From Carcharhinus longimanus (taxonomy: Eukaryota), in NCBI GenBank assembly GCA_030264375.1, contig JASCQW010000099.1, positions 54,218,022 to 54,282,021 of the forward strand: 64,000 nucleotides of DNA, read 5' to 3'. Under the pieces are notes generated by a model. The model was given only the letters and a program-made list of their open reading frames with translations. It was not told the DNA's origin and did not search any database. The position numbers were made by a program, and so were the translations under genes. Shown in pieces: positions 33,641 through 36,251 of the stretch; the first letter of the stretch is position 1, and each line of letters starts with the position of its first letter.

Positions 33641-33938
33641 GCACAGTGGTTAGCACTGCTGCCTCACTGTGCCAGGGACCCAGGTTCGATTCCCAGCTTG
33701 GATGACTGTGGTGTGGAGTTTGCAGGTTTGCCCTGTGTTGGCATGGGTTTCCTCTGGGTACTCTGGTTCCCTCCCATAGTCCGAAAAACGTGCTGGTTAG
33801 GTGCATTGGCCATGCTAAATTCTCCCTCAGTGTACCCAAACAGATGCCGGAGTGTGGCAACTCATGGATTTTCACAGTAATTTCATTGCAGTGTTCATGT
33901 AACTCTACTTTTGACATTAATAAATAAACTTTAAACTT
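33641..33938 (+). mobile_element. V-domain tRNA-SINE, tail type B
   Basis: gcacagtggttagcactgctgcctcac...ggttcgattccc...ttttcacagtaatttcattgcagtgtt...taataaataaacttt. Confidence 0.92.
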
Positions 33939-34494
33939 GAATCAGATAAAATCTCTACTCCATAAATTTCACCTGGTTTTACACAATAATTTCCCCATTT
34001 CTTCTCTATCTTTGAAGATGGTCAAACATTGACTTGTTTTTATCACATTAAATTGTTCCTGAACGCAGAAATATGGTAACTACTGAAATCAGAGCAAATG
34101 GATTTCCTCACAAGAGGAAGAACTCTGATCCTCATGCATGGTCATTCTATATAAACATTATTTAGGAATGCATTAATAATGTCACTACACGCTGCAATCA
34201 TACAATTCTTGCTTCTCAATGTCATATTTCTCATTTTACAAGGTTACTAAATTTGATATATAATTGTTCTGAATTGTTATGAACGAAAAAAAAGCCAGCA
34301 AACAACTGATTGCTCCTGGACTTGGTTCTGTCCAGTTTTATTAAGATCAACAAACTAGATAGGACTAACCTACTTCACAAGAAGACGTGAAAATAGAAAT
34401 CAGACAAAACCATTTGGCCCATTAAGCCCACAGATGGTTTACAATTAGCATAAACACGAATTTTCTTCATCGTCATTATGCAGTATAGAAGTTA

Positions 34495-35139
34495 AGTATT
34501 GATGAGAAAATAGAAGCCATTTTTGGAGCTTTTTGCCTTGTACTCATTAGGATATTTGTGACAATATTAATATAAGGGAAATTAACAAAAGTGTGCTGTC
34601 TGAGAAGAAAATGCTGATTTGTTGCCAAGTGGACTCTTTGGACAGCACGGTGGCACAAAGGTTAGCACTGCTGCCACACAGCAGCAGGGACTCGGGTTTG
34701 ATTCTCGGCTTGGGTCACTGTCTGTGTGGAGTCTGCACGTTCTCTCCATTTTTGCACGCGTTTCCTCCAGGTGCTCCAGTTTCCTCCCACAGTCCAAAAG
34801 ACATACCGGTTAGATGGATTGGCCATGTTAAAATTTGATTAGGGGATTTTTACGGTAACTTCTTCAAGTGTTAATGTAAGTCTACTTGTGACAATAAAGA
34901 AATAAATTGATTGGTAGATGTGTTGCCATGGAGAGTGCACTTCTTAATGGTGACTGACAGTTTACTGTGCATTCACCATGGCAACACATTGACCAATCCG
35001 AGTCCACTTGCCAACCAATCAGCACTTGCTTCTCATACCGATTACATTTGTTGATTTCCCTCACATGGTTGCAATTGTTCTGATGAGTACAAGACAAAAA
35101 ACTTTGACAAAAAAGTATCCTTTTATTTTCAGCTGTACT
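34495..35139. mobile_element. Foldback (palindromic) Penelope-type element with a decayed type-I hammerhead ribozyme in each arm
   Basis: Left arm 34495-34940 (excluding SINE 34640-34907) is the diverged reverse complement of right arm 34967-35139; 26-nt loop; ttgtt-CTGATGA-gtacaagac-aAAA-aact-tt-gacaa at 35075-35110. Confidence 0.7.
34640..34907 (+). mobile_element. V-domain tRNA-SINE, tail type B, inserted in the foldback arm
   Basis: Head, V-domain and tail ctacttgtgacaataaagaaataaat. Confidence 0.92.
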
Positions 35140-35947
35140 CAATTTTATTTATCCAAAATAAAATCTAAAACCAGATGGCTCTCTCCACAAGTTCAGAAGA
35201 CCAGTAAATCAGGGGAAATAAAACAATGTAAGTGATTTTTAAATGACCTAAAATGAGGCATATTCCTCGCATGGCTAATTCAGAACATGAATGATGTGGA
35301 CGGATATCTCGTTAGCATAACGTTATTATATACATTTTTTTTGGATCCAGCAAGAATAGTTCAATTTTGCGCATGGTCGCAAGTCATGTCCGATGTCAGG
35401 AAACAGACACAAAAAGTCAAAGGCTTGTTTTGTCTACAAACCGCACGTTCATTTTCATGAATTTGTGGCAAAGGAAGGATATTTTAGCTTTCCTCCTCAA
35501 TAAATGTAAAAGTTATGGCTGGGATAAACAGAGGTTGTAAATTGAATCTAAACTGAGAAGAATTTGATTCTGGCATCACTATACACAGTTTGTTTCCAGA
35601 TTGTCTTGTACTATTCATGAAAAAGGGAGCTGGGGATATGCAAAGATTAATGTTTTCTGGTTTCTGTCTGCTAAGTCAACGTATATTGTTATTTTTAAGG
35701 TGATCAGCAATATTACCATTCTTTAAGCTTGACGTATAATAGATACTGGAAATTTCAAAACAATTTTATATGTACTTCATCTAATCTAATAAGCTGTATT
35801 CACCATGCACAATGTGATCATTGGGCTATGATGGGCTAATCAAATACTGAAAATGTAACCATTTGCCATTCATCTCCATTCTGTCTGAAAGTGCATTCCT
35901 GAACTGCCAGTGGCTCCCCTTTCCTTCTCTTACCTCTGAAGCATTGG

Positions 35948-36251
35948 TTTTAATTTTATTAGTGTCACAAGGAGGCATACATTAACACTGTGTTAAAATT
36001 ACTGTGAAGCTCCCCTAGTCACCACACTCTGCCATCTGTTCGGGCATATCGAGGGAGAATTTAACACGGCCAAAGCACCTCACCAACACATCTTTTGGGC
36101 TATGGGAAGAAATCAGAGCACCCAGAGGAAACCCATGCAGACACAAGGAGAAAATGCAGACTCCGCATAGACAGTTACCCAAGCCAGGAATTGAACCCAG
36201 GTCCCTGGTGCTGCGAGGCAGCAGTGCTAATCACGGTGCCACCGTGTTGCC
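35948..36251 (-). mobile_element. V-domain tRNA-SINE, tail type B
   Basis: ttttattagtgtcacaagg...gaggaaacccatgcagacac...ggaattgaacccagg...cacggtgccaccgtgttgcc. Confidence 0.92.

Follow-up and report, generated by a model that had tools for sequence, protein, structure and literature searches.

A palindromic repeat with two decayed hammerhead motifs in Carcharhinus longimanus, a probable fold-back remnant of a Penelope-like element insertion

A palindrome at positions 34472–35140 of the window (the whole 64,000-nucleotide stretch of Carcharhinus longimanus DNA analyzed here) carries a motif resembling a minimal hammerhead ribozyme in each of its arms, one on either strand, which raises the question of whether it is a mobile element in its own right or the residue of something else. 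The preliminary description favored the former, namely a distinct non-coding fold-back retroelement in which the transcript of either strand would end in a ribozyme. Our analysis of the arms, of contigs from the same repeat family, and of published insertions points, with good but not complete confidence, to an old, dead fold-back stump of a Penelope-like element (PLE), left by one truncated insertion of its terminal repeat (pLTR). The assignment to PLEs is made by analogy of architecture.

Geometry and boundaries of the palindrome

The inverted repeat was borne out by a repeat search, which recovered three colinear arm pairs, and by alignment of the arms after removal of a SINE that interrupts one of them (score of 166; the best of 300 shuffles scored 44). 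The global alignment of the arms contains 132 matches and 38 mismatches, corresponding to 78% identity, and the SINE-less palindrome has a folding energy of −172 kcal/mol, compared with −90 ± 6 kcal/mol for 60 shuffles. The right arm (34967–35140, plus strand; 174 nt), delimited by the repeat search, the arm alignment, and the family contigs, resembles the end of a pLTR read in sense on the plus strand. The left arm (34472–34639 and 34908–34940; 201 nt) comprises an outer part, which is a pLTR-like end in sense on the minus strand (34494–34639), an inner part on the same strand (34908–34940) that is 88% complementary to 34967–34998, and a 22-nt extension beyond the outer part. Between the arms lies a 26-nt center (34941–34966, minus strand), which is covered by family contigs and is contiguous in them with the left arm, being family sequence that continues that arm. 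The arms are arranged head to head, with their sense strands pointing away from the center and the hammerhead motifs located near the outer ends, and there is no host DNA between or within them. The right end of the center (34958–34967) is one mismatch short of a 10-bp palindrome.

The element had previously been placed at 34495–35139. The palindrome itself stands, but its start has to be moved to 34472, because the left arm bears the 22-nt extension (34472–34493, minus strand) that has no partner in the right arm. This overhang, unpaired in the arm alignment and found at one end only, is a putative 3′ tail. The palindrome is bracketed by a 13-bp direct repeat (34459–34471 and 35141–35153, plus strand; 11 of 13 positions identical), a candidate target-site duplication that is suggestive only; when the two 46-nt boundary regions were shuffled 1500 times, 81 of the shuffles (5%) gave a match of this quality.

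The SINE splitting the left arm (34640–34907, plus strand) looks like what we take to be a shark SINE. Because it lies within the arm and belongs to a family with at least a dozen other copies in the window, which are approximately 70% to 79% identical to its body, it is the younger of the two elements, in agreement with the preliminary description. Members of the SINE family are dense in the window, at 33641–33930, 34640–34907, and 35950–36249 and in a dozen other places, with the copy at 35950–36249 inverted relative to the first two. The window also includes 894 N bases, distributed over several runs.

The hammerhead motifs

The right-arm motif (35075–35110, plus strand) comprises a 5-bp stem I (35075–35079 with 35106–35110) including one U-G pair, an exact CUGAUGA box (35080–35086), a helix II of 2 bp (35087–35088 with 35094–35095) with a 5-nt loop, and a cleavage-site base at 35105, with UUU at the site; the sole core position lost is G12, replaced by A at 35096. 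The left-arm motif (34521–34555, minus strand) has lost stem I and is altered at G5 (A at 34548), G12 (A at 34534), and U16.1 (C at 34526), and it retains an AGCT loop. The letters of both motifs are as originally read, except that the left motif starts at 34555 rather than 34556. In both arms, 9 nt separate the hammerhead boxes (35087–35095 in the right arm), and helix II opens with the G10.1-C11.1 pair, is only 2 bp long, and has no bulged base. The first four bases of the 9-nt stretch, GTAC, are palindromic, a property that could be relevant in a dimer.

The GAAA box, with its catalytic G12, is absent from both present copies. Because G12 is the proposed general base of the hammerhead (PMC6155905), both motifs are, judging from their sequence, very likely dead relics, which supports the earlier claim that neither copy is active. 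Neither motif folds better than its shuffles, and the left copy is not hammerhead-like in its fold (z of 0.65). The covariance-model scan proposed in the preliminary description did not recover the motifs: with the Rfam models, there was no hammerhead at the gathering score in the window and none at E ≤ 10 in 34400–35300. The 11 sub-threshold Rfam matches, mostly of miRNA hairpin models on the center and none of a hammerhead, were rejected as generic hairpin matches. A pattern fitted to both motifs matched twice in the 64 kb against 0.03 matches expected and, having been derived from these same arms, demonstrates rarity rather than ribozyme identity; no third copy of the motif was found in the 64-kb window.

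The suggested kinship with the minimal type-I hammerheads of PLEs is supported. As in the metazoan PLE motifs (PMC4209133), the layout is of type I, with a 5-bp stem I, CUGANGA, and G10.1-C11.1; the flanks are U-rich on the 5′ side and AU-rich on the 3′ side; and there are twin copies on opposite strands. The vestigial helix III, which in one of the arms has an AGCU loop, finds a counterpart in the row for D. willistoni in Fig. S3 of the same paper. Unlike in those motifs, G12 is missing from both copies, and helix II, which in PLE-type motifs usually measures 3 to 8 bp and has a bulged base after A9, spans 9 nt here without such a base, compared with 11 nt in the shortest of the 56 rows of Fig. 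S3 (PMC4209133). Twin minimal hammerheads on opposite strands have been described at distances of 100 to 700 bp, and dispersed motifs have been ascribed to truncated PLEs (PMC4209133); the twin motifs of the palindrome are about 260 bp apart without the SINE. PLE-type motifs need a partner on the same strand and cut weakly even as dimers (PMC4209133; dimer cleavage is summarized in PMC6765202). The searchable part of the supplement to PMC4209133 names no cartilaginous fish, and a search of the literature returned no publication on this motif in sharks and none on minizyme helix II length.

The repeat family and its ancestral letters

Contigs from 4 of 24 runs (X1, X6, X14, and X15) were aligned to 34908–35270 at 80% likeness, yielding 1868, 1319, 1592, and 2695 aligned contigs. 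Depth over the arm is in the thousands to tens of thousands, compared with 3 to 17 in the flank, and reaches 26,000 to 49,000 in X1, X14, and X15, for a flank depth of 7 to 17. Both arms represent the end of a highly abundant dispersed repeat, which terminates near 35115–35140. The center bin (34947–34959) has a depth of 754 to 2451, well above that of the flank and the lowest of the inner part. The contigs stop at the inner end of the right arm; the number with a loose end before 34967 is 61 in X1, 42 in X6, and 91 in X15. One of the 32 pieces listed, which are among the longest (7741 more lie beyond the list), crosses the center; this contig (X14 record 9) has 6 differences and is read as the orthologue of the palindrome. 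Among the listed pieces, two-armed copies sharing this center are not the pattern of the family, although young perfect hairpins can be hidden by short-read assembly.

The family contigs also restore parts of the ancestral repeat. At 35079, the family letter is C, in 71%, 73%, 68%, and 77% of depth in the four runs, so that stem I becomes a fully Watson-Crick helix of 5 bp, in keeping with the stem previously obtained by combining the arms. Upstream of the motif on the plus strand are putative promoter boxes (34993–35046), namely CCAAT at 34993 and 35015 and TATAAA at 35041–35046. The last is decayed in this copy and is restored by family letters at 35039, 35041, 35042, and 35045 (60% to 80% of depth) and by the loose-end consensuses in all four runs; the family TATA box follows the two CCAAT boxes and precedes stem I by 34 nt. 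Joints such as 35017–35081 and 35024–35083 connect the CCAAT region to the motif, in that order, within a single contig. The majority of the family differs from this copy between the TATA box and the motif, and at least two different sequences precede the inner end of the arm (34967) in the family contigs; judging from such sequence differences, several subfamilies of the repeat appear to exist. Downstream of the right motif, a pyrimidine run ending in CAG (35125–35134) resembles a 3′ splice site; introns are possible in the terminal repeats of PLEs.

All four runs contain the orthologous flank. The X6 orthologue is identical to the window over 35046–35270, and that of X15 has 3 differences over 35083–35270 (two in the flank and the third apparently at 35120), apparently none of them in the motif. 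The loss of G12 therefore predates these lineages. The template itself may already have lacked G12, the A being common to both arms. An apparent orthologue in X14 (record 16; 35002–35270) has 11 differences, 2 of which were placed in the flank; the contig could be chimeric, or the arm could have decayed unevenly. A joint of opposite strands (34992/35069) occurs in one contig per run in all four runs and is possibly another inverted insertion of the family with a different center. Other opposite-strand joints, mostly explained by the symmetry of the stretch itself, were not counted.

Whether the ancestral motif carried GAAA bears on the reading that the repeat is not a PLE end, that the motif was never a ribozyme (with AAAA as its consensus), and that the palindrome is MITE-like or some other repeat. 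In agreement with this reading, G12 is absent from both arms; the family contigs, at a listing threshold of 15%, show no G at 35096 in any of the four runs; Rfam gave no match; helix II lies outside the published range; and no coding link was found. At the same threshold, the contigs also show neither G at 35101 nor C at 35105, which tells against the PLE reading. We modeled alignment with a toy seed-and-extend procedure, from which the real aligner may differ in behavior: for seeds of 17 to 23 nt, an ancestral G12 would surface at only 1% to 15%. Because a true G would be expected at or under the listing threshold, the missing G at 35096 is uninformative. The observed coverage of the motif relative to the CCAAT region is 0.15 to 0.36, compared with 1.26 to 1.50 in the model with an AAAA consensus and 0.27 to 0.60, in most settings, in models of G12 within a decaying CpG. 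This modeled ratio argues weakly against AAAA and weakly in favor of an ancestral CpG at G12, bearing in mind that depth is not copy number. No version of the toy model fits all of the family-contig data.

Further points against a non-PLE repeat are that, with the family letters, an exact CUGAUGA is enclosed by a stem I of 5 Watson-Crick pairs, that the observed/expected ratio of CpG in the window is 0.29, and that family copies with a single arm are at odds with a MITE; overall, we regard such an origin as highly improbable. The palindromic AGCT loop and stem III of the preliminary description fared less well, and the evidence leans against them. AGCT is present in the left arm only, and the right arm and the contigs aligned to it read A at 35101, where a G would be predicted by the toy model to appear at 17% to 84% and where none was observed, so that the case for a palindromic helix III reduces to the left arm.

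Neither the 59 N-free stop-to-stop frames examined in the window (49 from 24–45 kb and 10 elsewhere), which gave no Pfam match, nor the translated arms, which gave no protein match, link the repeat to a frame for RT or GIY-YIG, and neither a host gene nor a PLE frame was placed in the window by the Pfam scan. This lack of a coding link counts against the PLE assignment; a truncated stump would not be predicted to retain the frame. The same reading frame runs open through the motif in each arm (34993–35232, plus strand, 80 codons; 34479–34637, minus strand, 53 codons; 61% identical) and, having neither a protein nor a Pfam match, is probably due to chance. DNA pattern scans for relatives of the repeat found none in viral contigs and none in prokaryote genomes; scans of metagenomes gave 0 and then 6 matches, all over 20 to 27 nt only, which were dropped as chance.

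Origin of the palindrome

A dead fold-back stump of a PLE is the most likely origin, because head-to-head inverted pLTRs, one-sided tails, and twin minimal hammerheads on opposite strands have all been published for PLEs. Inverted pLTRs of 181 to 218 bp, with a 31-bp tail, duplications of 8 to 10 bp, a TATA box, and palindromic junctions interpreted as traces of self-priming, have been described (PMC3846280), and an inverted 5′-truncated copy with a one-sided tail is a general trait of PLEs (PMC8557442, PMC8969392). The palindrome shares with insertion units of endonuclease-positive PLEs (PMC3846280; PMC8557442) the head-to-head inverted repeats of approximately 180 to 220 bp, the near-palindrome at the junction, the extension at one end, the target duplication (here a candidate), the TATA-like box, and extreme 5′ truncation. 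It differs from them in that no reading frame is left, in the length of its tail (22 nt, compared with 30 to 40 bp at one end in PLE units; PMC8557442, PMC3846280), and in the length of its candidate duplication (13 bp, compared with 8 to 10 bp).

Under the stump reading, the target would have been nicked by the PLE endonuclease, and reverse transcription, starting from the left end, would have run through the tail, the hammerhead, and the promoter region for about 227 nt before halting within a short stretch complementary to itself. The nascent strand would then have folded back, primed itself, and recopied the arm, ending 22 nt short, and joining would have left the 13-bp duplication. The priming site would correspond to the near-palindromic right end of the center (34958–34967). 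Family letters beside the inner end of the arm (loose-end consensus before 34992, four of four runs) would pair the two ends of the center. Because the present-day letters of the center do not fold (−0.3 kcal/mol), and one of the three letters expected for a perfect priming hairpin is restored at 34941–34943, we infer the fold-back step rather than read it from the locus; priming on antisense RNA, as proposed in PMC3846280, would yield the same shape. Later, the left arm was interrupted by the SINE, and the two arms drifted apart to their present identity. In the parent element, the ribozyme would have cut the RNA near the start and the end of the element, as a dimer formed by tandem pLTRs. 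The present palindrome offers no partner motif on the same strand, and nothing in its sequence points to activity.

The reading closest to the preliminary description is that of a fossil, non-coding fold-back family that propagated as one unit, moved by a PLE, with the transcript of each strand ending in a hammerhead whose 2-bp helix II would be the shortest seen so far among PLE-type motifs. The geometry is compatible with a sense motif close to the end of either strand, and the candidate duplication brackets the whole palindrome; moreover, short reads assemble hairpins poorly, and the X1 loose-end consensus before 34967 ends in letters that fit a fold-back center too (agreement of 0.51). However, the family contigs stop at the center, which consists of arm sequence, is crossed by the single listed piece, and has the lowest depth of the inner part. 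On either strand, a read-through transcript would contain the antisense arm ahead of the motif, and the motif bases are predicted to pair with the other arm (mean probabilities of 0.71 and 0.75, with or without the SINE), burying the motif. The promoter-like boxes point outward, so that RNAs would begin at the motif and leave the element; the tail is one-sided; and no second copy is present in the window. We therefore consider a distinct, ribozyme-terminated element of this kind very unlikely.

Equally poor prospects attend the proposal that a solo pLTR was made palindromic later by inverted duplication at the DNA level, or that two independent insertions came to lie back to back. The arms differ at 38 positions and at the base equivalent to 35101, and PLEs tend to insert beside older copies (PMC6765202), as such a history would allow, but host DNA is absent from between and within the arms, one candidate duplication brackets both, the center sits at a near-palindrome, and both arms share non-majority letters, including the A at G12, as expected of one template.

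Like retrozymes, the palindrome is short, non-coding, and apparently PLE-related, with a type I hammerhead. Metazoan non-LTR retrozymes are head-to-tail tandem repeats with ribozymes on the same strand, from which circular RNAs are released (PMC7229834, PMC7761336), whereas the palindrome is head to head, with one motif per strand and no further copy in the window. Retrozymes have been counted in one chondrichthyan genome (bioRxiv 10.64898/2026.07.22.740005), and the supplements to that study may list the present family.

A palindromic unit moving whole would, if real, be a new kind of retroelement, and the family data argue against it. Read as a fold-back PLE stump, the locus adds one decayed instance of an insertion shape already in print and as such is of little importance. 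Its center would nonetheless illustrate neatly the kind of self-priming junction that has been proposed for PLE insertion. Should GAAA prove to be the consensus of the family, the 2-bp helix II would be shorter than in any of the 56 published PLE-type motifs and would offer a natural test of the lower size limit of dimeric hammerheads.
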